DNA from: Candidatus Lokiarchaeum ossiferum
GTDB taxonomy: Archaea; Asgardarchaeota; Lokiarchaeia; Sigyniarchaeales; Promethearchaeaceae
Assembly: GCA_025839675.1 (NCBI GenBank)
Contig: CP104013.1
Coordinates: 60,001 to 92,000, forward strand
Length of the DNA: 32,000 nt
Reading direction: 5' to 3'
Part shown: positions 10,743 to 31,099 of the stretch, piece after piece
How positions within the stretch are numbered: the first letter of the stretch is position 1
How the letters are laid out: every line of letters begins with the position of its first letter
The notes under the pieces: generated by a model
Databases searched by the model: none
What the model was told of the DNA's origin: nothing
Seen by the model: only the letters and a program-made list of their open reading frames with translations
Program-made: the position numbers and the translations under genes

Positions 10743-12575
10743 ATGGTTGGAATAGACCAAAAACGAATTATTCTAAGTGATTCTTTCTGGATGTTTAGAT
10801 TTTTGAAAGATGATGAAGAAATCACTTCACAAATTCTAAAAGAGGGATTACCACTTACCGAAGAAACTTTAAAAGTGTATGTCCCCTCATCTTGGGCACT
10901 TTACCAGAATCGGAAACATTTTTATCATTTTGGGCGCGGATTATATGAGATGAATTTCTACCTTCCCTACCGATGGGGTTCTGGGGATGGGAAGAAAGTG
11001 ACCCTTGTTTTCAATGGTTCAAATTACAAAACTACGGTCTGGATTAATGGGAAAAAAGTTGGTTTCCATGAAGGAGGTTATACTAAATTTTGGTTTGAAA
11101 TAAATGATTTCGTTGTATTTGGTAAAGAAAACCGAATTACTATCGAAGTTGACAATCGCTATATGGAAAATCGGTTACCTTGGTTTGAATCGCCCGAATG
11201 GATGAATTATGGAGGTATCTATCGTCCAGTGTACTTAAAATTAACTTCCCAAGTTTGCTTCGATGATTTTAAAATTACAAACGACCTCGAATTTGATAAA
11301 CCATTGGGTTTGGGATCTCAAAGTTGTAAAGCGAAACTAAATGTTCGTTTTTTGGTAAAAGATCATAGTGATCATCGCAAAGATTTTGAGGGTAGCATTA
11401 TTGCCATTCTAAAAAATTCTGAAGAACTTGACTCCATTGAAGTTCCATTTAAGTTTAAAGATAAAAATGAACGATATGTTGATATATCACTCAATATTGA
11501 GAATCCTCACCTATGGTCACCTGAGGATCCATATATGCATGAGTTAACTTTTCAACTCATCGACAAAAAGGACCGCAAAGAAATTGATCGGGAAAAAATG
11601 AAATGGGGATTTCGTGATTTTGTAATCTCCGGCAAAGATTTTTATCTTAATAATAAACCGATTGTATTACGCGGAATTAGTCGTCATGAAGATCATCCCG
11701 ATGTAGGGTCTTCAATGAATCCTCGTCTTATTTATAACGATTTAAATATTATGAAAGGGGCTGATATCAATTGTATTCGAACCTCTCATTATCCTCCCCA
11801 TGAATCACTCCTGGATTTTGCCGATGAGATGGGATTTTTAGTTTTGGAAGAAATCCCCGTCTATCGCTTGAGAAAAGAGCATTATACTCCCGAAATGTTA
11901 ATAAATGCCCAGCAACAATTATGGGAGATGATTCATCGGGACAAAAACAAATGTTCTGTTATTGCGTGGATTGTTTCAAGTGAATGCGATACTGAAAGCG
12001 AAGAAGGAAATAAATTCATGTCCACTTTGTTACAAATTTCTCGCGATTTGGATCCCACCCGCTATCATACTTTGGTAACTGAAAAACCTCTTCTTGACAC
12101 TACCATGGATTTGGTCGATTTTGTCTGTGCTAATGTCTATATTGGATGGTATGATAATTATGATGTAAGTCCGAAAGATGCTGCAGCAGAAATTGATCTA
12201 ATCTGGAAAAAAATGAACACTCTCGATCATATTAAACCTTTAATGATTTCGGAGTTTGGAGCCGGGGCCATTTCGGGCTTCAAATCATTCGCAAATGCTC
12301 GATGGAGTGAAAATTATCAATACGATCTCTTGCGTGAATATTTAGATATCATAATTGACAAGGATTATATCAATGGTGCCTGTATTTGGCATTTTCAAGA
12401 TTTTCGATGCAGTCCAGTCCAAGGTTTTCACGAAAGGCCCAAAGAATACAACAATAAAGGCATCGTTGATATGCATCGAGATCCTAAAATAAGTTATTAC
12501 ATTGTACAACGAAGATATGAGAAATGGAAAAAAATGATTGAACAACAAAATTCCATTATTCAAAAACAGGAATAA
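10743..12575 (+). CDS. GH2 glycoside hydrolase (beta-glucuronidase/beta-galactosidase-like)
   Basis: 610 aa. Sugar-binding domain VWINGKKVGFHEGGYTKF, then RGISRHEDHP and CIRTSHYPPH. The acid/base region is WIVSSEC (E414) and the nucleophile region is MISEFGAG (E504). No signal peptide. Confidence 0.85.
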   Translation: MVGIDQKRIILSDSFWMFRFLKDDEEITSQILKEGLPLTEETLKVYVPSSWALYQNRKHFYHFGRGLYEMNFYLPYRWGSGDGKKVTLVFNGSNYKTTVWINGKKVGFHEGGYTKFWFEINDFVVFGKENRITIEVDNRYMENRLPWFESPEWMNYGGIYRPVYLKLTSQVCFDDFKITNDLEFDKPLGLGSQSCKAKLNVRFLVKDHSDHRKDFEGSIIAILKNSEELDSIEVPFKFKDKNERYVDISLNIENPHLWSPEDPYMHELTFQLIDKKDRKEIDREKMKWGFRDFVISGKDFYLNNKPIVLRGISRHEDHPDVGSSMNPRLIYNDLNIMKGADINCIRTSHYPPHESLLDFADEMGFLVLEEIPVYRLRKEHYTPEMLINAQQQLWEMIHRDKNKCSVIAWIVSSECDTESEEGNKFMSTLLQISRDLDPTRYHTLVTEKPLLDTTMDLVDFVCANVYIGWYDNYDVSPKDAAAEIDLIWKKMNTLDHIKPLMISEFGAGAISGFKSFANARWSENYQYDLLREYLDIIIDKDYINGACIWHFQDFRCSPVQGFHERPKEYNNKGIVDMHRDPKISYYIVQRRYEKWKKMIEQQNSIIQKQE

Positions 12576-13263
12576 GGGGTATTCTAAATAGTTTCCAAAT
12601 ATTAGCACTTTCTTTATTTACTTTTTTTATTATATTTTTGAATGTAATATGTTCTTTTTGATAATCACGAATTTGGTTCCAAATCACATCGTGATGTTTT
12701 CTAATTTTGTCATAATTTAAGGGTAGATCTGCATAAATGGAATTTAATGAGATAAGCAACTCTTTTGCTTCAGACTTCTTAACGTTTCGATTTATGGCAA
12801 TTCCCAAAATATGCATTAAATAACTGGAAAACATATGTGCTTTCATTTTTAGAACTTCATCTTTAATGAACTTGTCAATTCCATCAAAGTTAAACCTTCC
12901 ACGTAAAATAAAATCCTCAATTTCTTGCATATAAACATTTTCAAATCGATTAATTATTGCCCGAGTCATTACATCTAATTCGTAGTATGCTTTTAAGTCT
13001 AAATCTTCCAATCCTCTTATTAAAAGGGTTGCATGAATTTTATTGCCTAAAGACATACGAAGCTCGGTATCCCCTCGAAGGATTCTAAAAGTTCGATCCT
13101 GTCCACCTATTCCTAATTCGTTGAAAAATAATGAACTGGCAGCTAAAAATCCTGAAACTAATTGAATATCCACGCTTGATTGTTGGTTTGGGTTATTAAA
13201 ATTATAATAATAAATCGACATTGATTCATAGTGAATAAAAATTTCAAGTGACCCGTTAAGCAT
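12556..13263 (-). CDS. Longin/roadblock-like domain protein with a helical C-terminal extension
   Basis: 235 aa. The N-terminal about 120 aa (LEIFIHYESMSIYYYNF ... VDIQLVSGFLAASSLFFNELG ... FRILRGDTELRMSLGNKIHATLLIRG ... ELDVMTRAIINRFENVY) fits a longin-like beta-beta-alpha-beta-beta-beta-alpha pattern. The 3' end overlaps the convergent GH2 gene by 20 nt. Confidence 0.55.
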   Translation of the reverse strand: MLNGSLEIFIHYESMSIYYYNFNNPNQQSSVDIQLVSGFLAASSLFFNELGIGGQDRTFRILRGDTELRMSLGNKIHATLLIRGLEDLDLKAYYELDVMTRAIINRFENVYMQEIEDFILRGRFNFDGIDKFIKDEVLKMKAHMFSSYLMHILGIAINRNVKKSEAKELLISLNSIYADLPLNYDKIRKHHDVIWNQIRDYQKEHITFKNIIKKVNKESANIWKLFRIPLIPVFE

Positions 13264-13479: not shown

Positions 13480-13779
13480 ATGCCACGTAAAAGTAAAGCA
13501 CAGAAGAAAGAAGAGGTTCAAGAACTATTTGAACAAGTAGAATTCCTTTTAGAACGAATTAATGCTGATAACGGAGTTCCAAGAAATATCCGAAAAATTG
13601 CACAAGAATCGCTGACAACCATTGGTCGCCTTGATGAGAAAGAAAACGGTCCTGCTGTCTGTGCCAGTTCCTGCGTAACCTTATTAGAAGACATCGCCCA
13701 AGATCTCAATTGTCCCCTTCATACTCGCACTCAAATTTATCAAATTTTATCCATTTTAGAACAAGTGCGTGATTATTAA
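13480..13779 (+). CDS. UPF0147 family protein (archaea-specific small helical protein)
   Basis: 99 aa. NGVPRNIRKIAQES ... LEDIAQDLNCPLHTRTQIYQILSILE matches the remembered UPF0147 signature (VPRNIRR ... P.H.RT.IW...S.LE). GAGGT lies about 8 nt upstream of the ATG. Confidence 0.75.
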   Translation: MPRKSKAQKKEEVQELFEQVEFLLERINADNGVPRNIRKIAQESLTTIGRLDEKENGPAVCASSCVTLLEDIAQDLNCPLHTRTQIYQILSILEQVRDY

Positions 13780-13831: not shown

Positions 13832-14599
13832 TTATTCTGAGTATCCGGAAGAATCATAGGCTCCTTTTGGAGGTTTTTTGATATCTTCTTCATCTAACTC
13901 TTCATCTCTTCTTGAGATCTCTTTTTCTTTAGATGTAGCATTCATTATTTCGTCATAATATTTGCGTCCTTTATGAAGATAATATATGTTTCTCAAATCT
14001 CTTACGGTGATATATCCCCAAAATGAAAAAGGGAGAATATACAATAATATCCCCCACCATGTGAATGATGTAATTGAAATAAAATAAGTAAATAGAAAAT
14101 AAATCGAAGTAAATAAACTGATCGCAAATAAAATCATTCTTCGTTTTGAATTTTTCTCAAATGTACCATGCTCTAAACCCGCATAACAAGTGCAACATAT
14201 AACCGGCATATTGACATGGTGTTTTTCCTTATAATATAGCGACATTAAAATCGAAAAAGGACGATCTATCTTCATTCCACATAGTTGGCATCGAATTTTT
14301 AATTTTAGCCGATCATTTTCAATTTTATCTACTTCACTTTTTGGGAAAAAGCAATTATCATTTTTATAGTGATCACAGTGCTTACAATTAAGCATTTTCT
14401 CAAATTCAATGGGAAATCGTTTTTTCAAATTTGTTTGGATGATTTTATCATAGTCTGTCTGGTGTTTACAATATGGAATTCCATCTTCATCAATTGTCCA
14501 TTCTGGCTGGATAATTCCGTCTTCATCATATATTTTTTCTTCATCCAAATTTGTGTCAATGGCTAGGTTTTTTTTTATATCATCTTTTCTATGGACCAT
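13832..14599 (-). CDS. Hypothetical Cys-rich (zinc-ribbon-like) protein with two C-terminal TM helices and an acidic tail
   Basis: 255 aa. The Cys pairs CKHC, CQLC and CCTC are followed by hydrophobic helices (MILFAISLFTSIYFLFTYFISI, WWGILLYILPFSFWGYI). Confidence 0.55.
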   Translation of the reverse strand: MVHRKDDIKKNLAIDTNLDEEKIYDEDGIIQPEWTIDEDGIPYCKHQTDYDKIIQTNLKKRFPIEFEKMLNCKHCDHYKNDNCFFPKSEVDKIENDRLKLKIRCQLCGMKIDRPFSILMSLYYKEKHHVNMPVICCTCYAGLEHGTFEKNSKRRMILFAISLFTSIYFLFTYFISITSFTWWGILLYILPFSFWGYITVRDLRNIYYLHKGRKYYDEIMNATSKEKEISRRDEELDEEDIKKPPKGAYDSSGYSE

Positions 14600-15242: not shown

Positions 15243-17354
15243 TTATCTAATTAGGGATCCGTTGGGGGCATCAGAACCAGGTCTTATTAGAGCGGCTCCT
15301 TTTTTCTTCATATCTGCTGCTAATAACATTCCATTTGATTCAATTCCGCGAATTGCTTTGGGTTCTAAATTTGTTAATACTGTAACTTGGGTTCCTTTGA
15401 TTTCTTCAGGAGAATATTGTTTTGCGATCCCAGCAACAATGGTTCGAGGTTTCTCTTCCCCAATATCTACTTGAAGGAGTAATAAATTCTTACTATCTGG
15501 AACATTTTCTGCAGTGATTACGGTTCCAACTCGCAAATCTAATTTTGTGAAGGTATCATAGTCAATAGTTGGTTTTTGTTTGCTTGATTTCTTCTTTCCA
15601 TTTTGCTTAGATGTTCCTTCTTCAGTATTTTCTTCTTCGGGTTTTCCTTGCATTCGATTGAGTTTCTTTTTCAATTCTTTAATATCAAGTTTCTGAAAAA
15701 GAGGTTTCGCCTTTGGGATAGATTGACCCACAGGTACTTTCAATTCTGAGGCGGAATCCCATAATACATCGTTAATTGATTCTTGACTTCCAATGGCAAT
15801 AAATATTTTTTGTGATATGCCTGGAATGTATGGTTGTAATAAAATTCCAATTGTTCTGACCATTTGAATTGATAAATTGAAGGTGTGACCTGCTTTTATT
15901 TTATTTGTTTTTATCATTTTCCATGGCGCTTTGTTGTTGATATAGATATTTCCTTGTCTTGCAATTCCAATAATTTCATTTAATGCTTCTTTCAACTTAA
16001 AGCGTTCAAGTAAATCTCCAACTATTTTGGAACTGGTTATTATCGTCTCAATGAGTTTTTGATCTTCTTCATCTAATTCACTCTCTTTGGGACCTTCAGG
16101 TACTTTTCCATCATATTGTCGACCAATGAAGGTTAAAGTTCGATGAATGAAGTTACCGATGATATCATTAACTTCTAAAACATCTTTTTCAAATTGATCC
16201 CATAAAAAATTGGTATCTTGCTTTTCCGGACGATTTCGTAGTAAGCTATATCTCCAATATTCCACGGGAGCTAATTCTAAAGCGTCATCAATCCAAATTC
16301 CAATTTTTCGAGATTTGGAAAATTTATCATTTTCATAATTTAAGAATTCGGTGGAACTGACATTGAAAGGCATGGTTAATTGCTTTTCTGGGGGTAAACC
16401 TTTGTTGTATGCCACTAATAAGCCAGGAAATATAATTAAATGAAATATTATGTTATCTTTCCCGATGAAATATACTGAACGTGTATTAGGATCATTCCAA
16501 AAATAGGAAAATTTAGAAGGATCTTTCTTAATTATTTCAGCCCACTCTTTCACTGCTGATACATATCCTAAAACCGCTTCAAACCATACATAGATTGATT
16601 TATTTTCTGATCCTTCAAAGGGTGCAGGAATTCCCCATTCCAAATCACGTGTAATTGCACGGCTTGGTAATCCTTCCTTTAGAAAATTAAGAGATGCAGA
16701 ACGAGCATTCGAGGGGAGATATTCGTTATCTTCTATGAATCCGCGGATACCTTCTTCAGTTTTGCCAAAATCTAAATACCAATGTTTCGTTCGTTTTTTA
16801 ATCGGAGTTTGTTTGCAATGTTTACAATGGACATTTATTAGATCTTCTGGTTCTAATAATTTCCCACAAGCATCACATTGATCTCCTCTTGCATTTTCTG
16901 ATTGGCAATGTGGACATGTTCCTTCCACAAAACGATCGGGAAGATATAATTTATCATGCTCACAGTAAAAGACATCATCTTCTTTGGTAGATACTAATCC
17001 ATTTTCTTCAACTTGTTTGTAAAAATTTTGTATGAACTGAATATGGGTTGGATTATGAGTATGTGTATAATTATCATACGAAATGTTCCATTTTAGAAAA
17101 AGATCTTTAATCTTTGCATGATTGATCTTAGTCAACTCTTCAGGGGTAATATTTTGTTCAATTGCACTCACTGCTACAGGAGTTCCATGCTCATCACTTC
17201 CAGAAACATAAATCGCTTCATCACCTTTTGATCGGACATACCGAACAAAAACATCTCCTGATAAAACACTGCCAATTAAATTTCCTAAATGAGGTGTTGC
17301 GTTGACGTATGGCCAAGCGCTAGTAATTATCCATTTTCTTTTTTTGCTTTCCAT
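15243..17354 (-). CDS. metG: Methionine--tRNA ligase with C-terminal Trbp111/EMAP-II-like tRNA-binding domain
   Basis: HIGH motif (PHLGNLIGS), KMSKS motif (KFSKSR), and zinc knuckles (CPHCQS..CDACG, CKHCK). The C-terminal OB fold is LDLRVGTVITAE...VDIGEEKPRTIVAGI. The track start at 17363 is GTG. The ATG at 17354 is preceded by AGGTG (17361..17365) and is preferred. Confidence 0.95.
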   Translation of the reverse strand: MESKKRKWIITSAWPYVNATPHLGNLIGSVLSGDVFVRYVRSKGDEAIYVSGSDEHGTPVAVSAIEQNITPEELTKINHAKIKDLFLKWNISYDNYTHTHNPTHIQFIQNFYKQVEENGLVSTKEDDVFYCEHDKLYLPDRFVEGTCPHCQSENARGDQCDACGKLLEPEDLINVHCKHCKQTPIKKRTKHWYLDFGKTEEGIRGFIEDNEYLPSNARSASLNFLKEGLPSRAITRDLEWGIPAPFEGSENKSIYVWFEAVLGYVSAVKEWAEIIKKDPSKFSYFWNDPNTRSVYFIGKDNIIFHLIIFPGLLVAYNKGLPPEKQLTMPFNVSSTEFLNYENDKFSKSRKIGIWIDDALELAPVEYWRYSLLRNRPEKQDTNFLWDQFEKDVLEVNDIIGNFIHRTLTFIGRQYDGKVPEGPKESELDEEDQKLIETIITSSKIVGDLLERFKLKEALNEIIGIARQGNIYINNKAPWKMIKTNKIKAGHTFNLSIQMVRTIGILLQPYIPGISQKIFIAIGSQESINDVLWDSASELKVPVGQSIPKAKPLFQKLDIKELKKKLNRMQGKPEEENTEEGTSKQNGKKKSSKQKPTIDYDTFTKLDLRVGTVITAENVPDSKNLLLLQVDIGEEKPRTIVAGIAKQYSPEEIKGTQVTVLTNLEPKAIRGIESNGMLLAADMKKKGAALIRPGSDAPNGSLIR

Positions 17355-17462
17355 TATTCTCACCTAAGGCACTAATATTGAGATAAAATGTATGCTAACA
17401 GATTAATTTTTTCTATCATACAACTATCTCGTTCATTAAGATGTGTTATTTTTGCGAATTTA

Positions 17463-17509
17463 TAAAATTTCTGCTTCAAATTTCTTCAATATTATTAAAA
17501 TTTCTGCTT
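17463..17509. repeat. Perfect 14-nt direct repeat TAAAATTTCTGCTT (17463..17476 and 17496..17509) in the metG upstream region
   Basis: Read directly. The period is 33 bp, 109 to 155 nt upstream of the metG ATG. The second copy is flanked by 9-bp inverted repeats TTCAATATT (17485..17493) and AATATTGAA (17521..17529). Confidence 0.6.
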
Positions 17510-17843
17510 TAGCTCTCTGAAATATTGAAATATCTCTTGAATTACTAATTTCTTTTCAATTTTGAAATTAACAAATATATTTTTCCAGAAATTGTTGCAT
17601 TTCAATCATTATCTCTCAAAATTTGGTCTCAAGATCAATATGAAAGATAAATCCTATTAAATTGTTAAATGCAACTAGTAGTGCATCGATTTTTGGGTCA
17701 TCATTATTTGGGTTCTAAAAATTCTTGGAACATAAAATTGTTGATGGATAAAATGTAATGAGACCATTAAAATATTAAAAGATTAATTGCCAATTAAATT
17801 GATTGAAAATTCAATAGTTGTTGATTACTGGATAGTTCATATA

Positions 17844-19019
17844 TTAAACTATTTTTCCACCACAATTTTCACAAGATTTGTCTTTATCATACATATCCTT
17901 TAGACAACTAACGTGATACTTTGCGGAACAGCGATTGCATCGAAATACTTTGTCATTTTTTTCTTTTGCATTGATTTCTTTAAAACAGAAACTACATTCG
18001 AAATTTGTATTGATCAAATTTTGGGGCTTGATTCGAATCATTTTAGTGGTGTTATCTTTCTCATCGAAATTTATTTTTTTTACTTCTATCCCTTTTATTA
18101 TCTCTTTCGGCAGTTTTAATAACGTATAACAATAAGGGCACCGAAAAATGTTTTCTCCTTCCGAAGACTTCTTTGCCCAAACACCAGCACAATGGAGATG
18201 CATTGGAGTATCACAATGTGGACAAAGACGCCCTGTTAAAATAAAAGACAAATTGTTAATTGGACTATTCCGAGAAAAGCAAATCTGACATTTTATTGTG
18301 CTATTTCTTTTTTTAATTTCTTGAAATTCTTCTTCGGTTGGAAAACGTAAATATTCTGCTATTTCTGAAAGTTGTTCTTTATTTTTTGCTCTTAAAGAAA
18401 GCATTTGAAATGAAACATTATCAGTCTTTTGTTGAAGAGCAAAATTTCTAATACCTTTGAGTATACCTTTTTTTGAATGAAACTTCATAAAGGTACCATT
18501 TGTGGGAGTGACTAATTGGAGATATTCTGTCTCATTTATTGTATGGGATTTGTCCGAATAAACAAGTACATCAAATTTAACACCTAATTGTGTTAAAACT
18601 GGTATATATTTGGCAATCTCTGGGGTAAAATGAAAATCATAGCAGTCTGTAATTAAAAATACATGATTTGATTGTCCTCCGATAATTTGGATTTGATCCT
18701 TCAATATCTGAATGGCATTCTCTATGGAAAAAGTTAATTCTGCAATACTTCCTTGAGGAGGGTGATTATTAACAAATTTTTTTGAGGCGATTTGAGATAA
18801 TAGTGAACTTGTATCTTTTGTTAATCCAGAAAGCACGGTTGTTTCTTTTCCAAAGATGAAGAGACTGATAAAAGACGCATGATCAACTTGATTTTTGGTT
18901 TCAATAAATTCCTTTACTCCCTTCAAGGCGACATGAAATCGATTTGGTCTAAAATCTTTAATCGCAGTGGATTTAGTGTTGTCTAAAAGAATTACAAAAT
19001 TTTCAACGTTTTCATCCAT
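17844..19019 (-). CDS. Rpn10/TFIIH-p44(Ssl1)-type vWA domain protein with two C-terminal C4HC3 (PHD/RING-CH-like) zinc fingers
   Basis: 391 aa. N-terminal VILLDNTKSTAIKDFRPNRFHVALKGVKEFIE parallels Rpn10 VLVIDNSEYSRNGDFPRTRFEAQIDSVEFI and p44 [31 protein letters not shown]. Finger 1 is C244-x2-C-x18-C-x2-C-x4-H-x2-C-x16-C-x2-C (18129..18290). Finger 2 is C342-x2-C-x15-C-x2-C-x4-H-x2-C-x10-C-x2-C (17862..17996). Confidence 0.8.
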   Translation of the reverse strand: MDENVENFVILLDNTKSTAIKDFRPNRFHVALKGVKEFIETKNQVDHASFISLFIFGKETTVLSGLTKDTSSLLSQIASKKFVNNHPPQGSIAELTFSIENAIQILKDQIQIIGGQSNHVFLITDCYDFHFTPEIAKYIPVLTQLGVKFDVLVYSDKSHTINETEYLQLVTPTNGTFMKFHSKKGILKGIRNFALQQKTDNVSFQMLSLRAKNKEQLSEIAEYLRFPTEEEFQEIKKRNSTIKCQICFSRNSPINNLSFILTGRLCPHCDTPMHLHCAGVWAKKSSEGENIFRCPYCYTLLKLPKEIIKGIEVKKINFDEKDNTTKMIRIKPQNLINTNFECSFCFKEINAKEKNDKVFRCNRCSAKYHVSCLKDMYDKDKSCENCGGKIV

Positions 19020-19485: not shown

Positions 19486-20928
19486 TTACGCAAAGCTTGA
19501 AAAAACACGTTCAAATCTAACAAGCGCATCGTCGATTACATCATCTGTATCTGTCATGTTTGTATATAATCTACTTCCCGCTAATGTGATCATCCCTTCG
19601 GCCATATAAGCGGCACCAATCTCGTGCATGGCTGCCTTTCGACTAAATGCATCTTCTAAAGCGCCATTTTTTGCCATGTCAACTAACATTGCTCCAGCTG
19701 TTTCAACATGGCATAATGAACCTTGATTATAGGCCACAAAAGGCAAATCAAATTGATCAATCAACTTTTGGACTCCGTTAATCAATCGATCTCCTGCTAG
19801 GGCTGCCTTATAATAAGCTTCTGTGCGTTCAATTTCCTTAATTGCCCAATAGCCCGCTACACAAGTTAATGGGTTCGCAGAAAGCGTGCCTCCAACATAG
19901 GCCCTTTGTTTCCCTGTTTCAACACCTGCTGCCGCACAACTTACAATATCAGCTCTTCCACCTATTCCACCTGCCATAGGGTAACCCCCAGCAATTATTT
20001 TCCCAAAGGTTGTTAAATCTGGTTTTACACCAAAATAACCTTGGGCACCTCCCATTCCTGATCTAAAGCCAGTAACCACTTCATCAAACACCAATAAAGT
20101 CTCGAATTCATCGCATAATTCCCGTGCTTGTTTGCAAAATTCTTTATCTCGAGGTCGTGTTCCAGATTCAGGACCAAATGGTTCTAAAAAGACTGCAGCT
20201 GTTCCTCCGCGCTTCACATTTTTAACTAATAAAGTTCTTAATTCTTCAATATCATTTGGGAAAAATTCTTGAGTATTTTTTAGACAACCGTGTGGAATCC
20301 CATGAGCTTCATAATCTGCAGTTCCTGGTATGTGCAATCCATAAACAAATTGATCACTCCAACCATGATACGCCCCTCCTTCTTTTATTATTTTTTTCTT
20401 TCCTGTAAATACTCTTGCCAATCTCGCAATTCCCATATCAGCTTCAGTACCACTTCCAAGTAATCGAATCATTTCGACATTTGGCATGTGGTGGTTGATT
20501 AATTCTGCTATCTTCAATTCATATTCATGGAATAATCCCGTAACGGGTCCACATGAATTGAGCACATCAATAACCTTATCTCTAACAGGCTTCCAATTAC
20601 TTCCAAGAAGTGTTGGACCTCCTGCCTGCAAAAAGTCTATATATTTATTTCCGTCTTTATCCCACATAAAGGCCCCATCTGCTTTTTCGATACAGATGGG
20701 AAAAGGATAATTGAAAGCTAAATTATGTTGTACTCCTCCAGGAATAAATTTTTTTGCCAGAGTTGTAATTTCTTTGGATTTTTGACATTTGGTCTCAAAA
20801 TATTGGAGATAATTGTCCATGACTCCGTCTTTGAAGGTTCGTAAATCTTGACTTACCAAAATATCTAATTTTGACCGGATTTCGTTCGCATCTGGCCAAT
20901 GAGTGAGTCCGTATTTGTGTTCGGTCAT
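19486..20928 (-). CDS. Class III PLP-dependent aminotransferase, glutamate-1-semialdehyde 2,1-aminomutase (HemL)-like
   Basis: GSGTEADMGIARLARVFTGKKKIIKEGGAYHG and FDEVVTGFRSGMGGAQGYFGVKPDLTTFGKIIAGGYP (Schiff-base Lys in TFGK) closely parallel HemL. An about 50-aa N-terminal extension is present. The track start at 20937 is GTG and the ATG is at 20928. Confidence 0.85.
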   Translation of the reverse strand: MTEHKYGLTHWPDANEIRSKLDILVSQDLRTFKDGVMDNYLQYFETKCQKSKEITTLAKKFIPGGVQHNLAFNYPFPICIEKADGAFMWDKDGNKYIDFLQAGGPTLLGSNWKPVRDKVIDVLNSCGPVTGLFHEYELKIAELINHHMPNVEMIRLLGSGTEADMGIARLARVFTGKKKIIKEGGAYHGWSDQFVYGLHIPGTADYEAHGIPHGCLKNTQEFFPNDIEELRTLLVKNVKRGGTAAVFLEPFGPESGTRPRDKEFCKQARELCDEFETLLVFDEVVTGFRSGMGGAQGYFGVKPDLTTFGKIIAGGYPMAGGIGGRADIVSCAAAGVETGKQRAYVGGTLSANPLTCVAGYWAIKEIERTEAYYKAALAGDRLINGVQKLIDQFDLPFVAYNQGSLCHVETAGAMLVDMAKNGALEDAFSRKAAMHEIGAAYMAEGMITLAGSRLYTNMTDTDDVIDDALVRFERVFSSFA

Positions 20929-21246
20929 TATTTTCACTTTAAAGAATTCCTAAGCTATAAATATTATTGCTCTTATCGTTCTTTTAGTTGATGTGTTTAA
21001 AAAACTCTCAGCAACGATTTTCAAAAAATTCTCACAAACTATTTTGTTCAAAAATAATTTTTCACCGTTCATAAGGAAGAGTTTTGGAGTTAATTTCATA
21101 TTTCAATAAATAAAAGTACAAAGATGTGCACATAATTCCACCAAAGTTCAATTAAAAATTCAAAAAATTAAGTCAATTTGGAAAAGAAGTATGAAAAAAA
21201 AAGGTAAATTGAATCCTTTTTAAAATAGGTTGGTCATTCAATTTTT

Positions 21247-23481
21247 TTATAATGCATCTAAAGCATTATTGAATGTTTCACTTGGACACATTGCCTTTAT
21301 TGCCAATTCTTCAACAGGTTTATAATATCCTCCGATATCAATCGGTTTACCTTGTACTGCAAGTAATTCATTGGCAATTTTTGACTCATTTTCAGCTAAG
21401 GTTTTTGCTAGGTTGGTGAATTTATTTTTCATTTCTTCATCCTTAGTTTGTGAAACTAGTTCTTGAGCCCAATACATCGCTAAATAGAAATGAGATCCTC
21501 GATTATCTATTTCATTAACTTTTCGAGAAGGAGATCTGTTATTATCTAAATATTTTTCAACGGCTTTATCAAGTGTTTCAGAAAGAAGAAGTGCCTTTGG
21601 ATTATTAGTTCTTTTACCTATATGAGTTAATGAACCAGGTAAAGCCATGAATTCTCCTAAGGAATCCCACCGTAAATGATTTTCTGCCATGAATTGTTGC
21701 ACGTGTTTTGGAGCTGAACCACCCGCCCCTGTTTCAAATAAGCCTCCCCCATTCATTAATGGCACGATAGAAAGCATCTTTGCACTTGTCCCAACTTCAA
21801 GGATTGGAAAAAGATCTGTAAGATAATCTCGAAGCACATTACCAGTTACTGCAATAGCGTCTTTTCCTTGATGGATAATTTCACAGGCATTTTGAGTTGC
21901 GTCATCTGGAGCCATTATTTTTATGTCTAATCCCGTTGTATCATGATCTTTCAAATATACATTGACCTTCTTAATGAGTTCTGCATCATGGGCTCGATTT
22001 TCATCTAACCAGAATACCGTTGGAAAGCCCGTTGTTCGTGCTCGATTCACAGTTAATTTTACCCAATCTTGAACTGGTAAATCTTTTGTTTGACACATTC
22101 GGAAAAGATCACCATCTTCAACTTTTCGTTCAAGTAAAACTTCATTAGATTCAGATAAAACTTGAACAACTCCTTGACCATGAATTTCAAAAGTTTTGTT
22201 ATGGGAGCCATATTCTTCCGCTTTTTGTGCCATTAAACCAATATTTTGGACAGATCCCATAGTTGAAGGATTAAATGCACCATGCTCTTTACAAAAGTCA
22301 ATGGTTTTTTGAAAAACTCCCGCATAGCTACTGTCTGGGATAACGAATTTGGTATCATAAGCCTTACCATCTGGACCCCACATCTGTCCACCATTTCGAA
22401 TAGCTGCAGGCATAGAAGCATCTATGATAACATCGCTTGGAACGTGAAGGTTTGTGATACCTTTATCAGAATTAACCATTGCAAGCTTGGGGTTCTTTGA
22501 ATAACACGCATCAATATCATCATTTATTTCTTTTTGTTTTTCAGAAGATAAACTTTTGATTTTAGCATAAAGTTCTCCTAATCCATTATTTGGACTGATA
22601 CCAAGTTGTTTAAATGTTTCCGCATGTTTTTCAAATACCTCTTTGAAGTATACTGAGACCACATGCCCAAAAATGATTGGATCAGAAACTTTCATCATAG
22701 TTGCTTTCAAATGAATTGAAAATAGTATTTCTTTTTCTTTTGCATCCTTTACTTGTTCTTCTAAAAAGGTTCGTAAAGCATTTTTACTCATGGCTGAAGC
22801 ATCAATAATCTCTCCGGGGATTAATGGTAATTTTCCTAAAAGAACTGTCTTTTTACCTGTTGTATCAATAAATTCGATTCTACTATTACCCGCTGTTTGC
22901 TCGGTTATAGTTTTGGAAATCTCGGTGGTTCTAAGATCTCCTGCTTTCATTGTTGCAACATGAGATTTGGATTCTTTAGTCCATTTACCCATTGAATGCG
23001 GATTTTTTTTAGCATAATTTTTAACCGGAGTAGGAACTCGTCGATCAGAATTCCCCATTCTTACTACAGGATTTACGGCACTTCCCTTAACAATATTGAA
23101 TGTTTTTTGAATCTTCTTTTCTTCATCTGTTTGAGGATCCTCTGGATAATCTGGAATCTTGTAACCTTTTTCTTGTAATTCTTTAACTGCTGCTTTTATC
23201 TGTGGAATTGATGCACTGATATTTGGAAGTTTAATTATATTCGCTTCTGGTTGGAGAACTAATTCTCCTAATTCTTCTAAGGCATTCGGTTGTCGTTGCT
23301 CTTCGGTTAAGTATTGAGGGAAATTAGCAATTATTCTTCCTGCCAAAGAGATATCCTTCGTTTCTATTTCGATCCCTGCCACTTCTGTGAATTTCTTGAC
23401 AATTGGAAGTAAAGAATAGGTGGCTAGCCGTGGAGCTTCGTCTACTCTTGTATAAATAATTTTTTCATTAGATTGAGTCAT
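21247..23481 (-). CDS. icd: Monomeric-type NADP-dependent isocitrate dehydrogenase (about 740 aa class)
   Basis: [66 protein letters not shown] and [18 protein letters not shown] match the remembered Corynebacterium/Azotobacter monomeric IDH almost block for block. The track start at 23493 is GTG. The ATG at 23481 ([11 protein letters not shown]) is preferred. Confidence 0.9.
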
Positions 23482-23542
23482 GATATGAGTCACTTTTTAT
23501 AATTTTGTTTTGAAAAAATAAAAAAAAGAAAAAGAATGGGGT

Positions 23543-25375
23543 TTAATCGTAAAGGATTTCATCCCAAGGTTGACGATAGAGTCGTGATCGTTGTCGTTTT
23601 TGATCAAAAACATGTCCCATCATACCAATAGATCGCCCTAATACAAAAAGACCATTCAATGCTTCACTGGAGATAACATCATCTTTTTCGTCAGTAGTGA
23701 AATCTAAGTTCTCCAATAAATCTAAGAAACAAATTCCAATACACCCATCAACATTCAAAATTAAGTTATTTCGTTTTGATGTTGTTAGTTTTTCTACTTC
23801 TAAAGCATAATCAAGGTATGGATGTTTTGGGAAATTTTTCATTACATAGTCTTTCAAAAGAACTACACGGACATCAGGATTTTGGACAGATTTGATCCGA
23901 TGGCCAATTCCAGGGATATTTTTCTTCTCTACTTTCTTCATATAAGAAATAAATTCAGTAGGGCTCATTCCTTTATCATAAGCCATTCGGAAGTATCGAG
24001 CACCATCAGAAATCGCACCACCGAATCGTGGTCCAATGGTTAGAATACCTGTGGCTAAGGAAGACATTAAATCCTTGCCTGCACGAGCTGTGACTATTGC
24101 ATTGTGGGCACCACTTACTGCTGGACCATGGTCTGCTGTAAGTTTAATTACCATTTCAACATACTCTTGAGCATAATCAGGTAATTCTTTCTTAAACCAA
24201 AGCATTCCAATAACATATCCTAAAGATTTATTTTCTTTGATAATAGCATCTAACCCTTTCTTATTATAGGTTGGAACATCTCCTCTATCATCAGAAATGC
24301 TGACAACAACATCAGTTGGTCTCCGTACTAAACCTTCTTTGAGTGCTTGAGCAAAGTCCATTGGAATCTTTGGTGGTTCAACTTCAACAATTTCTTCAAT
24401 TTTTCCCTCAGATTTGAGTTTATTGAATACTTCAGCAATTAATTCTCCAAAATGATCATAAGTACTTGGCACATGGGCTCCAGCTTCTTTTAATGCCTTA
24501 TTTTTCGCTTCTGCTGTTTCTAAATCACTCCCAGCCATGGCACCTGCATGTCCGAATTGTAATCCCTTTGGTAAAATTTTGGCAGCCGTTCCAGTTACCC
24601 AAATAACTAAAGGTTTAGTTATTTGCTTTGTTTTTAAAGCTTCCACAATTTTATATTCGTCAGTTCCCCCGATTTCACCGAGACATACTAACATTTTGAT
24701 CTTGGGATTTTTCTCATATCGTAATAAGTGATCAATTAACGAAGCACCAGGATATCGGTCTCCACCAATTGCAATACTCTCAAAGATACCATCGGAATTT
24801 TGGGCAATCATGAAGTTCATTTCATTGCTCATTCCACCTGATTTGGAAACAAATCCGACTGAACCAGGGCGATACATTTTTGAGAGTATAACATTCTCGG
24901 TAGTTCCAGCGGTGTTTCCAATCTTGAAAGCACCAGCACGAATTCCTCCAACAGTTGCAGGACCAATGATCATTTTATTTCGATCACGGGCTATTTTTCC
25001 TAAAATTCGACTTTGACGTTCTGGAATTCCTTCAGCAATAATTGCAACCGTACGGATAGAGTCTGTTTCCAATGCTTCTTTACTCGTCTCGAATGAAGAA
25101 CGGAATGAAGCAAAATTTACTACTACATCAGCATTAGGGTGTCTTTCAGCTGCAAGTTTAAATGATTTATATACTGGGATGATTATTTCTTTTACTCCAA
25201 AGAATACTTTGTGAGTTGCTACTGCAGGTCCTTGGGTTGGTCGAATAACGGCTGCTACAGAAGGTGTTTCACGTCGGCAGACATAATCGAAATCGATCAT
25301 CCGTTGGATTGCTTTGGTTTGAAAACCATAAACTATGGCTTGGGTCTTTTCATTAAATAATTCGTAATCTTCCAT
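23543..25375 (-). CDS. aclA: ATP-citrate lyase alpha subunit (CoA-binding/phosphohistidine domain plus citrate-synthase-like citryl-CoA lyase domain)
   Basis: 610 aa. The phospho-His loop is FGHAGAMAGS. The succinyl-CoA-synthetase-alpha-like N-terminal half includes GPATVGG and SKSGGMSNE. The C-terminal citrate-synthase-like region is TADHGPAVSGAHN. The ATG lies 1 nt after the aclB stop (TAA-A-ATG). Confidence 0.92.
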   Translation of the reverse strand: MEDYELFNEKTQAIVYGFQTKAIQRMIDFDYVCRRETPSVAAVIRPTQGPAVATHKVFFGVKEIIIPVYKSFKLAAERHPNADVVVNFASFRSSFETSKEALETDSIRTVAIIAEGIPERQSRILGKIARDRNKMIIGPATVGGIRAGAFKIGNTAGTTENVILSKMYRPGSVGFVSKSGGMSNEMNFMIAQNSDGIFESIAIGGDRYPGASLIDHLLRYEKNPKIKMLVCLGEIGGTDEYKIVEALKTKQITKPLVIWVTGTAAKILPKGLQFGHAGAMAGSDLETAEAKNKALKEAGAHVPSTYDHFGELIAEVFNKLKSEGKIEEIVEVEPPKIPMDFAQALKEGLVRRPTDVVVSISDDRGDVPTYNKKGLDAIIKENKSLGYVIGMLWFKKELPDYAQEYVEMVIKLTADHGPAVSGAHNAIVTARAGKDLMSSLATGILTIGPRFGGAISDGARYFRMAYDKGMSPTEFISYMKKVEKKNIPGIGHRIKSVQNPDVRVVLLKDYVMKNFPKHPYLDYALEVEKLTTSKRNNLILNVDGCIGICFLDLLENLDFTTDEKDDVISSEALNGLFVLGRSIGMMGHVFDQKRQRSRLYRQPWDEILYD

Positions 25376-25376
25376 T

Positions 25377-26660
25377 TTAATTTCCTCCTTTTAAGGCTAA
25401 GGGTACAATTCGAGTTAAGGGTGTATAACGGTCATGTACTTCAATATCTAAACCTAATTCTATTCCAATTTCTTTCATCATTTGTAACCCTTCTTTTTCA
25501 TAAGGTCCACCTCGACGAACGTAGATCTTCACATTAGCTTTCTTCAATTGATCGACTTTCTTTCGGAAGGCTTTTACAATTCCTGAAAAGGTCGCTTTTA
25601 CATTTGTGAAGTTTGCAATGCCTCCAGCAATGAAAAGATATTTTGGTTTTCCTGCAGGATCTGGGTTTTTGGTCATTAAATCAATTACTGTCTCGGCATA
25701 TAATTGAGTATGTTCTAGAGATGGATTTCCAGAATATTCTCCGTAATTGGAAAGTTCCATTCCAAAACCTAAATCTGCGATGGTATCTGTAAAGATTACA
25801 GAAGCACCTCCTCCAGATAATAGAGTCCAAATGTGGCCATCAGGGTTTAATAAATTGAACTTTAATGAAGCACCAGTTTTTGCATCTAAACTGTCAATAA
25901 ATTGTTCAGATTCGGTTAATTCCATACCAAATCCGCCTGGAAATTCTACTGGTGCATCAGGTGTGTTCCATGTATCATTATGTAAGAAATATGCAGTATT
26001 GTCTAAGCGAGATTTCAAATCTAATGGAACAATTTCTTTTTCTGCTGTTATTGCAAATGGGTTAATTTCTAAGAAGGCAAAGTCTTGATCTTGATAAACA
26101 TGCAAGAGCGCTCTAACAAATGGAACAACAACATCTCCAAAATCACCTAAATCTGGTAATTGTCCTTTGAAATCAAAGGTTGCAAGATCTGCTGTAAATG
26201 GAACTTTAATATGAGTAACTTTATCCCAATTTTCTTCAACGAAAATTCCTCCTTCTAAACTGAAGTGGATTATATCATAATCTCGATCTGATGTAATGGA
26301 AACATAATATTCTTTCTCATGTGGGACAAAAGGTTCGACTAATAATCGAGTCAATTTTCCTTTTTTACCACTAATTTCAAATACTTTGTCCAATTTCTCC
26401 GCCGCAAAGGCTTTCAATTGATCCAAATTGGCATCTAACAAAAGTAAATTTGCTTTACCTCGTTTTCCGAATAATTGGTCTGGTTTTGCAACAAGTTTGT
26501 CGGTTTTTAACCATGGTAATTCTTCTGCCAACTTGTCAATATCGGTTTCTGGAGTAAGTACCGCAAGTTTATTGTGGAATTTGAACTCCGGGAAATATTT
26601 TGGAATTTGGCTAGCTAAGAGCTTTTTTCCGTCATATTCATAGATTGGTTTTTGAGCCAT
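25377..26660 (-). CDS. aclB: ATP-citrate lyase beta subunit (ATP-grasp / citrate-binding)
   Basis: 427 aa. LVAKPDQLFGKRGK, LVEPFVPH, DAKTGASLKFNLLNPDGHIWTLLSGGGASVIFTDTI, NYGEYSG, GGIANFTNVKATFSGIV and VRRGGPYEKEGL parallel the N-terminal part of eukaryotic ACLY. Confidence 0.92.
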   Translation of the reverse strand: MAQKPIYEYDGKKLLASQIPKYFPEFKFHNKLAVLTPETDIDKLAEELPWLKTDKLVAKPDQLFGKRGKANLLLLDANLDQLKAFAAEKLDKVFEISGKKGKLTRLLVEPFVPHEKEYYVSITSDRDYDIIHFSLEGGIFVEENWDKVTHIKVPFTADLATFDFKGQLPDLGDFGDVVVPFVRALLHVYQDQDFAFLEINPFAITAEKEIVPLDLKSRLDNTAYFLHNDTWNTPDAPVEFPGGFGMELTESEQFIDSLDAKTGASLKFNLLNPDGHIWTLLSGGGASVIFTDTIADLGFGMELSNYGEYSGNPSLEHTQLYAETVIDLMTKNPDPAGKPKYLFIAGGIANFTNVKATFSGIVKAFRKKVDQLKKANVKIYVRRGGPYEKEGLQMMKEIGIELGLDIEVHDRYTPLTRIVPLALKGGN

Positions 26661-26695
26661 TTGTATTTCCTTCTTTGTCTTATTTAAAAAAAAAA

Positions 26696-28627
26696 TTATG
26701 ACCCGTAGGTCAAACTTCCACCTGCAATAATAATGTCAGTTTCACGTTCGGATAAATTATAGGTGGAATGGATATCAAATCCTTGGGTTTCATTACGAAC
26801 AATGATATCTTTACCTTCTTTTAAAGATGCTATGATATTTTTTATGGAGAGAATATCTCCTTGCTTGATTTTATCATAATCCTCTTCATTTTTGAATTCC
26901 AGCGGTAAAATCCCAAAGTTTACAAGATTATCTTTATGAATTCGTGCATAAGATTTGACTAATTTTGCTTTTATACCTAAATACATGGGAGCTAAAGCCG
27001 CATGTTCTCGGCTAGAGCCTTGACCATAATTTGATCCTCCAACAACAACACCACCACCTGCTTCCTTCGCTTTTAATGCTCGATTTGGAAAATCTTCATC
27101 AATCTGCTCAAAAACATGCATGCTGATCAAAGGTAGATTTGAACGCAAGGGTAATATTTTAGCACCGGCTGGCATAATATGATCCGTTGTAATATCATCT
27201 TCTACTTTAATAACTACGGAAAGATGATCAAATTGATCTGGTAATGGGAAGAAATCGGGCAACGGGGCTATATTAGGACCGCGGATGATTTCCACTTCAT
27301 CGGCTTTTTCTACTGAAGCTGGTTCCAATATCATGGAATCATCAATTTCTAACGATTCTGGCATTTTGAATTTTGGATAATCTCCAAGTTTACGAGGATC
27401 GGTCACTTCTCCAAAAATAGCCGCTGCAACTGCGACTTCTGGGCTAACTAAATACACATTAGCACTTTTTACACCACTTCTTCCAAAGAAGTTTCGATTG
27501 AAAGTACAAAGTCGAACAGCATTAGTTTTTGGTGCAAATCCAATTCCGATACATGGACCGCATGCATTTTCCAGCATTCGTGCTCCTGCTGCATAGAAAT
27601 TAGCTAAACTACCATCTTTTGCCAGTTCTGCAACAACTTGTCTAGATCCAGGTGAGATTCCAAGGACTGTGGCACGAGCTATTTTCTTTCCTTTCAATAA
27701 TTGAGCAACTGTCCATAAATCTTTTAAAGAACTGTTTGTACACGAACCGATTGCAACTTGGTCCACTTTCATTCCATATAATTCGGATAATGGCACAACA
27801 TTTCCTGGGGAATGAGGTTTAGCAATCAAAGGTTCAAGTTCTGATAAATTTATTTCCATAATTTCATCAAAATCTTCATCTTTCCCTTCAGGAAGTTCGA
27901 TCCATTGATCTTCTCGCCCTTCTAAGGCTAAAAATTGTTTTGTAATTTCATCGGATGGAAACACAGAAGTAGTTGCACCAGTTTCCGCACCCATGTTGGT
28001 TATTGTTGCACGTTCGGGAACAATTAAGGTTTTCACACCTGGTCCAAAATATTCTAAAATGTGCCCTACACCACCCTTAACTCCGATTCGGCGTAATACT
28101 TCTAAGATTACATCTTTGGCCGCAACGAAGGGTTGTAATTTTCCGGTAAGTTTAATCCCCATAATTTTAGGTGTTTTTAAGTGGAATGAACCTCCTCGCA
28201 TTGCGATAGCTATATCCAATCCTCCAACACCGATTGCTATTTGTCCCATTCCTCCCGCTGTAGGAGTATGTGAATCAGATCCAATTAATGTTTTTCCAGG
28301 TCGGGCAAATCTTTCCAAGTTCACTTGATGACAGATTCCATTTCCTGGTCGGGAACATTTAATTCCGTATTTGTCTGCAATTGACATTAAATATCGATGA
28401 TCATCAGGATTTTTAAAGTCAGATTGGAGAGTATTATGGTCTATATAGGAAACGGAGAGTTCAGTTGTCACACGTTTCACTTTCATGGCTTCAAATTGTA
28501 AATAAGCCATTGTTCCAGTTGCATCTTGAGTTAAGGTTTGATCGATCTTAATACCAATTTCCTTACCAACTTCCCATGCCCCTTCAACAATGTGCTCTTT
28601 CAATATTTTTCTCGCAACACTTGTCAT
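26696..28627 (-). CDS. acn: Aconitate hydratase (about 640-aa fused large+small type)
   Basis: The Fe-S and substrate motifs are GSDSHTPTAGG, IGSCTNSS, CGPCIGIG and the swivel-domain GGSNYGQGSSREHAA. The track ORF extends to 28723, but that extension is hydrophobic junk. The ATG at 28627 (MTSVARKILKEH) has GAGGT (28638..28642) 10 nt upstream. Confidence 0.9.
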   Translation of the reverse strand: MTSVARKILKEHIVEGAWEVGKEIGIKIDQTLTQDATGTMAYLQFEAMKVKRVTTELSVSYIDHNTLQSDFKNPDDHRYLMSIADKYGIKCSRPGNGICHQVNLERFARPGKTLIGSDSHTPTAGGMGQIAIGVGGLDIAIAMRGGSFHLKTPKIMGIKLTGKLQPFVAAKDVILEVLRRIGVKGGVGHILEYFGPGVKTLIVPERATITNMGAETGATTSVFPSDEITKQFLALEGREDQWIELPEGKDEDFDEIMEINLSELEPLIAKPHSPGNVVPLSELYGMKVDQVAIGSCTNSSLKDLWTVAQLLKGKKIARATVLGISPGSRQVVAELAKDGSLANFYAAGARMLENACGPCIGIGFAPKTNAVRLCTFNRNFFGRSGVKSANVYLVSPEVAVAAAIFGEVTDPRKLGDYPKFKMPESLEIDDSMILEPASVEKADEVEIIRGPNIAPLPDFFPLPDQFDHLSVVIKVEDDITTDHIMPAGAKILPLRSNLPLISMHVFEQIDEDFPNRALKAKEAGGGVVVGGSNYGQGSSREHAALAPMYLGIKAKLVKSYARIHKDNLVNFGILPLEFKNEEDYDKIKQGDILSIKNIIASLKEGKDIIVRNETQGFDIHSTYNLSERETDIIIAGGSLTYGS

Positions 28628-30892: not shown

Positions 30893-31099
30893 CTAGCCTC
30901 CACCAAACATATGGATGGCCAGTACTTCATCTCCATCTTGGATAAGGGTATTTTTGTAATCTTTTTTTTCAACAAATTCCCCATTAATTTTGACCATGAT
31001 CTCTGGAAATGTATATTTGTGGAGCTCCAACATTTTAGTAACTGTCATCCCTTTGAACCACTGAAAATCCCGATTATTCACAGTTATCATAAACTTCAC
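30893..31099 (-). CDS. ThiS/MoaD-like ubiquitin-fold (beta-grasp) protein with a C-terminal GGG
   Basis: The 65-68 aa sequence MITVNNRDFQWFKGMTVTKMLELH...VKINGEFVEKKDYKNTLIQDGDEVLAIHMFGGG fits the ThiS pattern and ends in Gly-Gly-Gly just before the stop. The track start at 31099 is GTG and the ATG is at 31090. Confidence 0.75.
   Translation of the reverse strand: MKFMITVNNRDFQWFKGMTVTKMLELHKYTFPEIMVKINGEFVEKKDYKNTLIQDGDEVLAIHMFGGG

Follow-up and report, generated by a model that had tools for sequence, protein, structure and literature searches.

We analysed a 32,000-nucleotide stretch of DNA from Candidatus Lokiarchaeum ossiferum (contig CP104013.1, positions 60,001 to 92,000; hereafter the window) and found that a minus-strand gene at 17844..19019 encodes a protein in which an N-terminal domain of the von Willebrand factor A kind (vWA) is followed by two C4HC3 zinc fingers of RING type. 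The parts of this vWA-RING protein are already known, as vWA scaffolds and RING-variant fingers have been described and the vWA-then-RING order has eukaryotic precedents; new are the combination of a vWA domain with two C4HC3 RING-type fingers and, in an archaeon, the resemblance over the whole length to the TFIIH subunit p44. The protein belongs to a conserved uncharacterised family, probably of RING-type E3s or scaffolds. We tentatively favour a RING-type E3 ligase or E2-docking adaptor of an archaeal ubiquitin(-like) system, and for such a protein we infer zinc binding, E2 binding and ligase activity. Public records name the family only "VWA domain-containing protein", NCBIfam holds no model for it, and, as far as the literature could be searched, no paper on Asgard archaea, on the evolution of ubiquitin or on TFIIH was found to describe it; literature searches combining Asgard with p44, Ssl1, Rpn10, vWA or RING, or ArnB with TFIIH, returned nothing relevant.

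Two RING-type fingers behind a vWA domain

The open reading frame, the vWA domain and both C4HC3 modules proposed in a first-pass annotation of the window were all recovered, and the coordinates it had assigned to the two fingers proved exact. The elements of the gene are as follows.

17844..19019 (-), complete open reading frame of 391 amino acids plus stop, with an ATG start: vWA domain, linker, RING-type finger 1, spacer, RING-type finger 2
18435..19007 (-), vWA domain (Rossmann-like alpha/beta), residues about 5-195, delimited by the strands and helices of the model
18969..18983 (-), partly degenerate loop of the metal-ion-dependent adhesion site (MIDAS), D13-N-T15-K-S17, from the sequence
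18936..18956 (-), motif D22-F-R-P-N-R-F28 after the MIDAS loop, from the sequence
18327..18365 (-), conserved linker helix/motif E-I-A-x-x-L-R-x-P-T-x-x-E, residues 219-231
18129..18290 (-), finger 1, a C4HC3 RING variant with ligands C244, C247, C266, C269, H274, C277, C294 and C297
17862..17996 (-), finger 2, a C4HC3 module of RING type with ligands C342, C345, C361, C364, H369, C372, C383 and C386

The N-terminus MDE..EN is common to homologues, and the sequence contains no signal peptide or membrane segment. The full-length AlphaFold model had a predicted local distance difference test score (pLDDT) of 85.7 and a predicted template-modelling score (pTM) of 0.72, with disorder only in the linker at residues 199-212 and with helices in the linker region at 214-220 and 229-236. 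In an alignment of 19 homologues (31-81% identity, mean column identity 48%), A221 and L224 of the linker motif are invariant and R225 and E231 nearly so; this motif might possibly pack the zinc half onto the vWA domain.

The ligand spacing is C244-x2-C247-x18-C266-x2-C269-x4-H274-x2-C277-x16-C294-x2-C297 in finger 1 and C342-x2-C345-x15-C361-x2-C364-x4-H369-x2-C372-x10-C383-x2-C386 in finger 2. Because all 16 zinc-ligand columns are invariant in the 19-member alignment and both complete modules are kept by 81 of 83 distinct species-representative relatives, the C4HC3 pattern lies far beyond chance. The spacing of finger 1 is identical in 73 of these relatives, and one of the two exceptions to the complete double C4HC3 pattern, a protein of 365 residues, appears truncated at a contig end. 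Outside the ligands, D13, W281, R293 and P295 are also invariant in the alignment.

When residues 225-391 were modelled separately, the AlphaFold scores (pLDDT 89, pTM 0.81) rose above those of the full-length model, which suggests that the two fingers form one defined unit. Each finger in the models consists of a beta hairpin round the second Cys pair and then a helix that starts at His-x2-Cys, and this is the treble-clef order of RING and PHD domains. Foldseek comparison of the zinc half with the PDB returned the RING domains of E3s, several of them solved with E2~Ub (Ark2C/RNF165, TRIM2, TRIM32, RNF38, HRD1, RNF24, RNF4, NSE1 and SLX1), at a probability of 0.9-0.99 and a root-mean-square deviation (rmsd) of 2.6-3.5 Å over 52-65 residues. 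In profile searches against PDB sequences, the ligands of finger 2 lined up with those of RNF4 (3.5e-5), synoviolin, Arkadia and RNF38, and finger 1 matched the RING variants SLX1, NSE1 (NSMCE1), FANCL and MEKK1. The latter four, the best profile matches of finger 1, have the same C4HC3 ligand set, but the matches are weak (E 0.008-0.1) and the domains lie within quite different proteins; weak Pfam matches to FANCL_C and zf-RING-like were also seen at residues 241-299. The eight ligands of each finger are thus predicted, from these fold matches, to be held in a cross-brace within a beta-beta-alpha RING fold. At the level of prediction this bears out the cross-brace that had been proposed earlier. 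Independent zinc ribbons and C2H2-like arrays were set aside, as the zinc-half model fits RING E3s at the probabilities given above and CTCF-type C2H2 arrays at <0.1. An RBR (RING-IBR-RING) ligase was likewise rejected: there are only two modules, no IBR/catalytic-Cys module is present, and the 44-residue spacer contains no Cys.

The fingers had been labelled as PHD- or RING-CH-like, and of this rather loose label only the PHD-like spacing C-x2-C-x4-H-x2-C stood. RING-CH (RINGv/MARCH-type) domains follow the pattern C-x2-C-x(10-45)-C-x-C-x7-H-x2-C, which neither finger has; the best matches are RING-H2 E3s for finger 2 and RING variants for finger 1. That the fingers are PHD-like or C1-like readers of a peptide tail, a lipid or a nucleic acid, next to a vWA domain that acts as a metal-dependent ligand binder, is in our view improbable. 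The spacing would agree with it, as would weak Pfam matches to PHD in 9 and to C1_1 in 16 of the 19 members and the retention of the MIDAS residues D13, S/T15 and D125 in most two-finger members, but the PHD match reached only 16.3 bits, below the 24-bit threshold, and the hallmark Trp two residues before ligand 7 is replaced in both fingers (F-R in finger 1, K-S in finger 2). Moreover, tandem-PHD structures matched the zinc half at a Foldseek probability of about 0.23, far from the values obtained for RING E3s, and the MIDAS residues are missing throughout whole sub-clades.

The E2-binding surface of canonical RINGs is exemplified by I383, W408 and P417 of c-Cbl. Among 128 family representatives (clusters at 50% identity), the position two residues after ligand 1 of finger 1 holds Ile, Val or Leu in 124 (Ile in 107; here I246), the position four residues after ligand 6 holds Trp in 112 and an aromatic residue or His in all 128 (here W281), and the position after ligand 7 holds Pro in 85 (here P295). 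Because Ile, Trp and Pro are conserved at the E2-contact positions, finger 1 looks, by its sequence, like an E2-docking RING. Finger 2 is specific to the Lokiarchaeial two-finger family and has an aromatic residue or Asn after ligand 1, Met or Val together with an invariant Tyr in the helix, and Gly, Ser, Asn or Lys after ligand 8 in the 19-member alignment; since its residues of E2-contact type differ, it looks more like a non-canonical partner.

Under the E3 reading, the vWA-RING protein would be soluble and cytoplasmic, and its vWA domain, with the MIDAS partly kept, would recruit a protein partner or substrate. Finger 1, as a two-zinc cross-brace RING, would bind the charged E2 through the Ile246/Trp281/Pro295 surface, while finger 2 would be a second RING packed beside finger 1, where it would either make up a built-in pseudo-dimer, as a partner without catalytic role, or offer one more docking site. 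The modifier, the substrate and the role of finger 2 are parts of the scheme that we infer. The reading is plausible because ubiquitin, E1 and E2 are encoded in Lokiarchaeota (PMC9192718) and a cascade of E1, E2 and RING-E3 from Asgard archaea works in vitro (bioRxiv 10.1101/2023.07.25.550441). A vWA domain placed before a RING also speaks for it, as plant RGLG ligases, which are proven E3s, have this order (PMC12647413).

Several observations weigh against an E3 role. The Pfam zf-RING_2 match of finger 2 (residues 341-386; 2.1e-5, 25.2 bits) falls just below the 27.3-bit cut-off, and each structural match to a RING domain is weak by itself (Foldseek E 0.01-0.1), although domains of 50 residues usually score in this way. 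After ligand 8, finger 1 has Phe or Tyr in 104 of the 128 representatives, not the Arg/Lys/Asn linchpin of most active RINGs, and the Trp and Pro that finger 1 has are missing from finger 2 throughout the 19-member alignment. No gene for ubiquitin, E1, E2 or JAB is a conserved neighbour in 86 loci of the family and 5 loci of its paralogues. Finally, p44, the closest full-length structural analogue, binds XPD through its vWA domain and interlocks with p34 through its zinc modules, and the chief use of its RING is to contact p34 structurally (PMC6422496).

The comparison with TFIIH p44/Ssl1 and other vWA proteins

When the full-length model was compared with the PDB by Foldseek, the top 18 matches were all p44/Ssl1 chains (E about 4e-14, about 390 aligned columns). 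Like p44/Ssl1 (GTF2H2), the vWA-RING protein has an N-terminal vWA domain and then two zinc modules, is nearly equal in length (391 vs 395 residues), is intracellular and does not require an intact MIDAS. Superposition of the vWA domain alone gave template-modelling (TM) scores of 0.84 for p44, 0.82 for Ssl1, 0.76 for Rpn10 and 0.67 for bacterial BatB, and the best matches of the family profile among solved structures were human TFIIH p44 (3.3e-13, with weak colinear matches in the zinc part) and Rpn10/PSMD4 (3.8e-13), followed by plant and yeast Rpn10, Ssl1 and BABAM1 (about 1e-6) and, far behind, complement C2 (4e-5) and BatB (5e-3). The human p44 sequence used for comparison shares 98-99% identity with annotated GTF2H2, and in a reverse search from it the 120 best of 2173 matches were all vertebrate p44. 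With hhalign, the family aligned to human p44, used as a single-sequence template, at 97.9% probability and colinearly over 327 columns; against this template, ligand pairs 2 and 4 of finger 1 fell on the C4 finger of p44 (C291/C294/C305/C308) and finger 2 on its C-terminal RING.

These likenesses would suit a non-catalytic scaffold of the kind of TFIIH p44/Ssl1 (or Rpn10/BABAM1), an assembly hub and a possible relative or antecedent of p44, in which the vWA domain would clamp and regulate an enzyme, for instance a helicase resembling XPD, and the zinc modules would lock onto another subunit. A degenerate MIDAS, as in intracellular scaffold vWA domains, and the lack of linkage to ubiquitin-system genes across the 86 loci would also agree with it. 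We nevertheless regard this explanation, the main rival of an E3 role, as the less likely of the two, since several comparisons point the other way. The superposition of whole chains with p44/Ssl1 has an rmsd of 21-24 Å, so only the vWA domain superposes on p44, and judging from the models it is this domain that drives the full-length ranking; p44 is absent from the top 50 Foldseek matches of the zinc half alone. Pfam PF07975 (C1_4), which vertebrate p44 sequences do match, found no match in the window protein at E<=10 and none in the 19 members at E<=0.01. Whereas p44 binds three zinc ions through a mononuclear C4 finger (eZnF) and a C4C4 "C1-like" RING, the vWA-RING protein is predicted to bind four, and a binuclear C4HC3 module stands at the position of the mononuclear finger. 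The XPB-contacting N-terminal extension of p44 is absent, the vWA domain beginning at residue 5 of the model. The partners of p44 are XPD, p34 and p62, and the vWA-RING family itself appears restricted to Lokiarchaeia and was not found in the Asgard lineages usually placed nearest eukaryotes. A scaffold would, in addition, leave the conserved E2-contact-type residues of finger 1 unexplained.

Taken together, the protein is built like p44 and has no closer analogue among solved structures, which does not establish it as a member of the p44 family. The p44/Ssl1 architecture claimed by the first-pass annotation is retained as regards a vWA domain followed by two binuclear modules and the best full-length structural match, but the zinc modules are not shown to be those of p44. 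It seems unlikely to us that the two-finger family, together with one-finger Asgard paralogues, is a surviving archaeal relative of the p44/Ssl1-type subunits that combine a vWA domain with zinc modules. Were it so, the eZnF of p44 would be a RING minus one zinc site, with ligand pairs 2 and 4 of finger 1 aligning there, and a TFIIH-core-like or Rpn10-like scaffold would be older than eukaryotes. E3 activity of the Ssl1 RING, which Takagi et al. reportedly observed in 2005, would then be an ancestral trait.

By sequence, the vWA domain is no closer to p44 and Rpn10 than to the best bacterial vWA domains. Pfam VWA_2 matches residues 9-125 of the vWA-RING protein at 3e-9. Both DNTKS at the MIDAS (D13 to S17) and DFRPNRF (residues 22-28) are present, as had been annotated, but DF-(R/P)-P-x-R-(F/L), taken there as a signature of Rpn10 and p44, is not diagnostic: in a control, the D-F-x-P-x-R-F loop was also found in prokaryotic VWA_2 proteins of the ordinary kind, including one from a Kofleriaceae bacterium, and this ruled it out as a marker of the Rpn10/p44 clade. 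The Pfam Ssl1 model PF04056 scored 19.1 bits on the window protein (E 1.2e-3), where the cut-off is 27 bits, and matched 15 of the 19 relatives at E<=0.01 (best 6.2e-11), but the model is unspecific and also matches Rpn10 and bacterial VWA_2 proteins (the latter at 3.7e-9 and 2.9e-8). The family profile aligned by hhalign to two bacterial vWA proteins at 1.5e-15 and 3.7e-14, to Rpn10 at 4e-13 and to p44 at 6e-13, and a profile search of a 1.8-billion-protein library returned eukaryotic Rpn10 and Bat-like vWA proteins both at E about 1e-11. The proposed placement of the vWA domain in the Rpn10/p44 clade is consequently favoured by structure only, as in the TM score of 0.84 to p44; the hhalign comparison finds it equally close to bacterial vWA proteins, and sequence does not decide.

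Among 34 two-finger representatives, D13 of the MIDAS is kept in 29, Ser or Thr at position 15 in 31, S17 in 23 and D125 in 24, and no conservation is seen at the MIDAS Thr position; of the one-finger paralogues, about half have lost D13. Because the MIDAS is only partly kept and is eroded in the paralogues, the vWA domain fits a protein-protein interaction domain, not an obligatory metal-dependent binder.

Other known proteins share parts of this plan. The vWA domain of Rpn10/PSMD4 is equally similar by profile and has the same D-F-x-P-x-R-F loop, but it is followed by ubiquitin-interacting motif (UIM) helices where the vWA-RING protein, which has no Pfam UIM match, carries zinc fingers. Prokaryotic VWA_2 (BatA/BatB-like) proteins are as similar in vWA sequence as p44 and Rpn10 and share DFxPxR; they differ in that solved BatB-type structures superpose worse (TM 0.67 vs 0.84 for p44) and that none of those examined has the fingers, and proteins of Bat type generally have a membrane anchor and an intact MIDAS. 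Weak matches to Pfam Prok-RING_1 (PF14446) occur in some vWA-RING family members. Plant RGLG ligases have the same vWA-then-RING order, but with a single RING of another ligand type and a copine-type, Ca2+-regulated vWA domain; they were absent from the top matches of the profile and Foldseek searches against the PDB, and no specific sequence relationship was detected. They are experimentally proven E3s in which the N-terminal vWA domain serves partner binding and the C-terminal RING binds the E2 (PMC12647413). The RINGs of archaeal ubiquitin operons (Caldiarchaeum; Asgard) are likewise archaeal and of RING type, in hosts with eukaryote-like E1 and E2 (PMC5654768; bioRxiv 10.1101/2023.07.25.550441); those are small single-RING proteins in Ub/E1/E2(/ESCRT) clusters, whereas the vWA-RING protein is multidomain and never so clustered.

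Distribution and one-finger paralogues

Among 5.8 billion proteins searched, 21 relatives came to light, and those with named sources came from Lokiarchaeota or Promethearchaeota, including Prometheoarchaeum syntrophicum. From a scan of one genome per species (GTDB), the best 80 of 133 encoding stretches were taken. Family loci were also carried by metagenome-assembled genomes (MAGs) labelled Hod-, Thor-, Odin- and Hermodarchaeota and by one labelled "Nanopelagicaceae bacterium" (L021, L022, L036, L038, L041, L048, L066-L068, L071, L075 and L085), and here mislabelling is suspected. The proteins of all these MAGs are 55-93% identical to one another and to those of the Lokiarchaeial group Loki_b31, with which they have the gene order in common, so the labels or bins of these MAGs look unreliable; on the same grounds, a wide Asgard distribution such as the MAG names would imply was rejected. 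The two-finger family thus appears confined to Lokiarchaeia, where it forms several deep branches at 30-45% identity: the group of the window, Promethearchaeum, Harpocratesius, WORB4, the large Loki_b31 group, and the P0021 and P0019 groups.

A profile search revealed a second tier of proteins that have the vWA domain and finger 1 only and end in other C-termini (zinc ribbons, coiled coils, extensions up to 1111 residues). Such one-finger paralogues share genomes with the two-finger form (L086 and L088) and also occur in a MAG labelled Helarchaeota, and many of them lack the MIDAS D13 and the DFxPxR loop. Because the one-finger tier shares only these two parts, the core of the superfamily is the vWA domain plus finger 1. 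These observations are based on the following loci and proteins.

L086, 10001-11332 and 12747-13943
L088, 2936-4105 and 10001-11008
P0051, P0081, P0088, P0109 and P0122

To our knowledge, Rpn10 and those TFIIH core subunits that are not helicases are commonly regarded as having arisen in eukaryotes, and the acquisition of substrate-binding domains by RING E3s before eukaryotes is poorly documented. The family places a conserved multidomain RING protein, built like p44, in Asgard archaea that can be cultivated (Promethearchaeum syntrophicum, probably also Lokiarchaeum ossiferum), and it makes testable whether modular E3s already belonged to Asgard ubiquitin systems and whether scaffolds of p44 type go back to archaea. 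Even if it is only a lineage-specific E3, it would be a new architecture in the archaeal ubiquitin toolkit.

Genomic neighbourhood and other genes of the window

The gene had been described as standing alone between metG and an aminotransferase, with no adjacent E1 or E2. Its two neighbours are as stated and the window contains no E1 or E2 gene, but the pairing with metG, which encodes methionyl-tRNA synthetase (MetRS), is strongly conserved. The adjoining features are these.

15243..17363 (-), metG, MetRS with a C-terminal tRNA_bind domain (Pfam tRNA-synt_1g 6.7e-142, tRNA_bind 1.5e-27)
17364..17843 (-), intergenic spacer of 480 bp between the vWA-RING gene and metG, AT-rich
19486..20937 (-), class-III aminotransferase, the upstream neighbour of the vWA-RING gene

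In the direction of transcription, the minus-strand order in the window is aconitase, ATP-citrate lyase beta, ATP-citrate lyase alpha, monomeric isocitrate dehydrogenase, class-III aminotransferase, vWA-RING and MetRS. The first four of these genes form a row at 21247..28723 (-), upstream of the aminotransferase, and make up a citrate-cleavage or reverse-tricarboxylic-acid-cycle type of gene set (Pfam IDH 1266 bits).

Clustering of neighbours across 86 loci placed metG downstream of the vWA-RING gene and in the same direction in 78 of them, 64 times as its immediate neighbour, and the pairing persists down to a MetRS identity of about 50-55% with the window, with the other neighbours varying by sub-clade. 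Family members without metG pairing, and one one-finger paralogue, lie next to small GTPases of Arf/Ras/Roc and Gtr1/RagA type, and a Roadblock/LC7 gene stands at position -3 in the largest sub-clade. In L086, one of the GTPases lies between a one-finger paralogue and a two-finger member. The small GTPases near family members are the following.

L003, 6104-6730 and 7250-9076
L005, 9237-10226
L086, 5200-6219 and 11365-12570

Such neighbours could point to a regulatory module of small-GTPase/Roadblock type or one linked to an aminoacyl-tRNA synthetase, in which the vWA-RING protein would bind or modify MetRS, a GTPase or the regulators of that GTPase, as might happen in nutrient or translation signalling. 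The persistence of the metG pairing despite MetRS divergence and changing neighbours speaks for such a module, as do the adjoining GTPases and the Roadblock/LC7 gene, and yet we consider it quite unlikely. The spacer between the vWA-RING gene and metG measures 480 bp here and 100 to 500 bp overall, in most relatives 100-300 bp; at such lengths each gene may have its own transcript, and the conserved order could be synteny inherited inside a single class. Small GTPases abound in Asgard genomes, their adjacency may be chance, and no known precedent ties MetRS to vWA-RING proteins. The window itself has a Gtr1/RagA-like GTPase gene (1332..2342 (-), 6.9e-26), 15 kb from the vWA-RING gene.

A ubiquitin-operon context was sought and found neither in the window nor in the 91 related loci. 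At 3723..4181 (+), where a JAB protein had been called, only a sub-threshold Prok-JAB match was obtained (E 0.007, 16.7 vs 25 bits); its motif is H-T-H-x7-H-x2-D, with His at the JAMM Ser position. The Gly-Gly-terminated beta-grasp protein annotated at 30893..31099 (-) was confirmed as a ThiS-family protein of 68 residues (Pfam ThiS 7.9e-10) that ends in Gly-Gly-Gly and is encoded 12 kb from the vWA-RING gene. It is a candidate sulfur-carrier or SAMP-like protein, and in the window no E1-like gene adjoins it.

Scans of the window found no Rfam families and no tRNAs. Three conserved open reading frames have no Pfam match: 844..1302 (-), which adjoins the gene for the Gtr1/RagA-like GTPase; 12556..13263 (-); and 13832..14599 (-), which encodes a protein with several CxxC pairs and with membrane helices at its C-terminus and is found again in a syntenic block of Promethearchaeum (cluster 11). 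Two glycosidase genes are present, a GH38 alpha-mannosidase-like gene at 7057..10023 (-) and a GH2 gene at 10743..12575 (+), and the latter, together with UPF0147 (13480..13779), is syntenic with Harpocratesius (L001).

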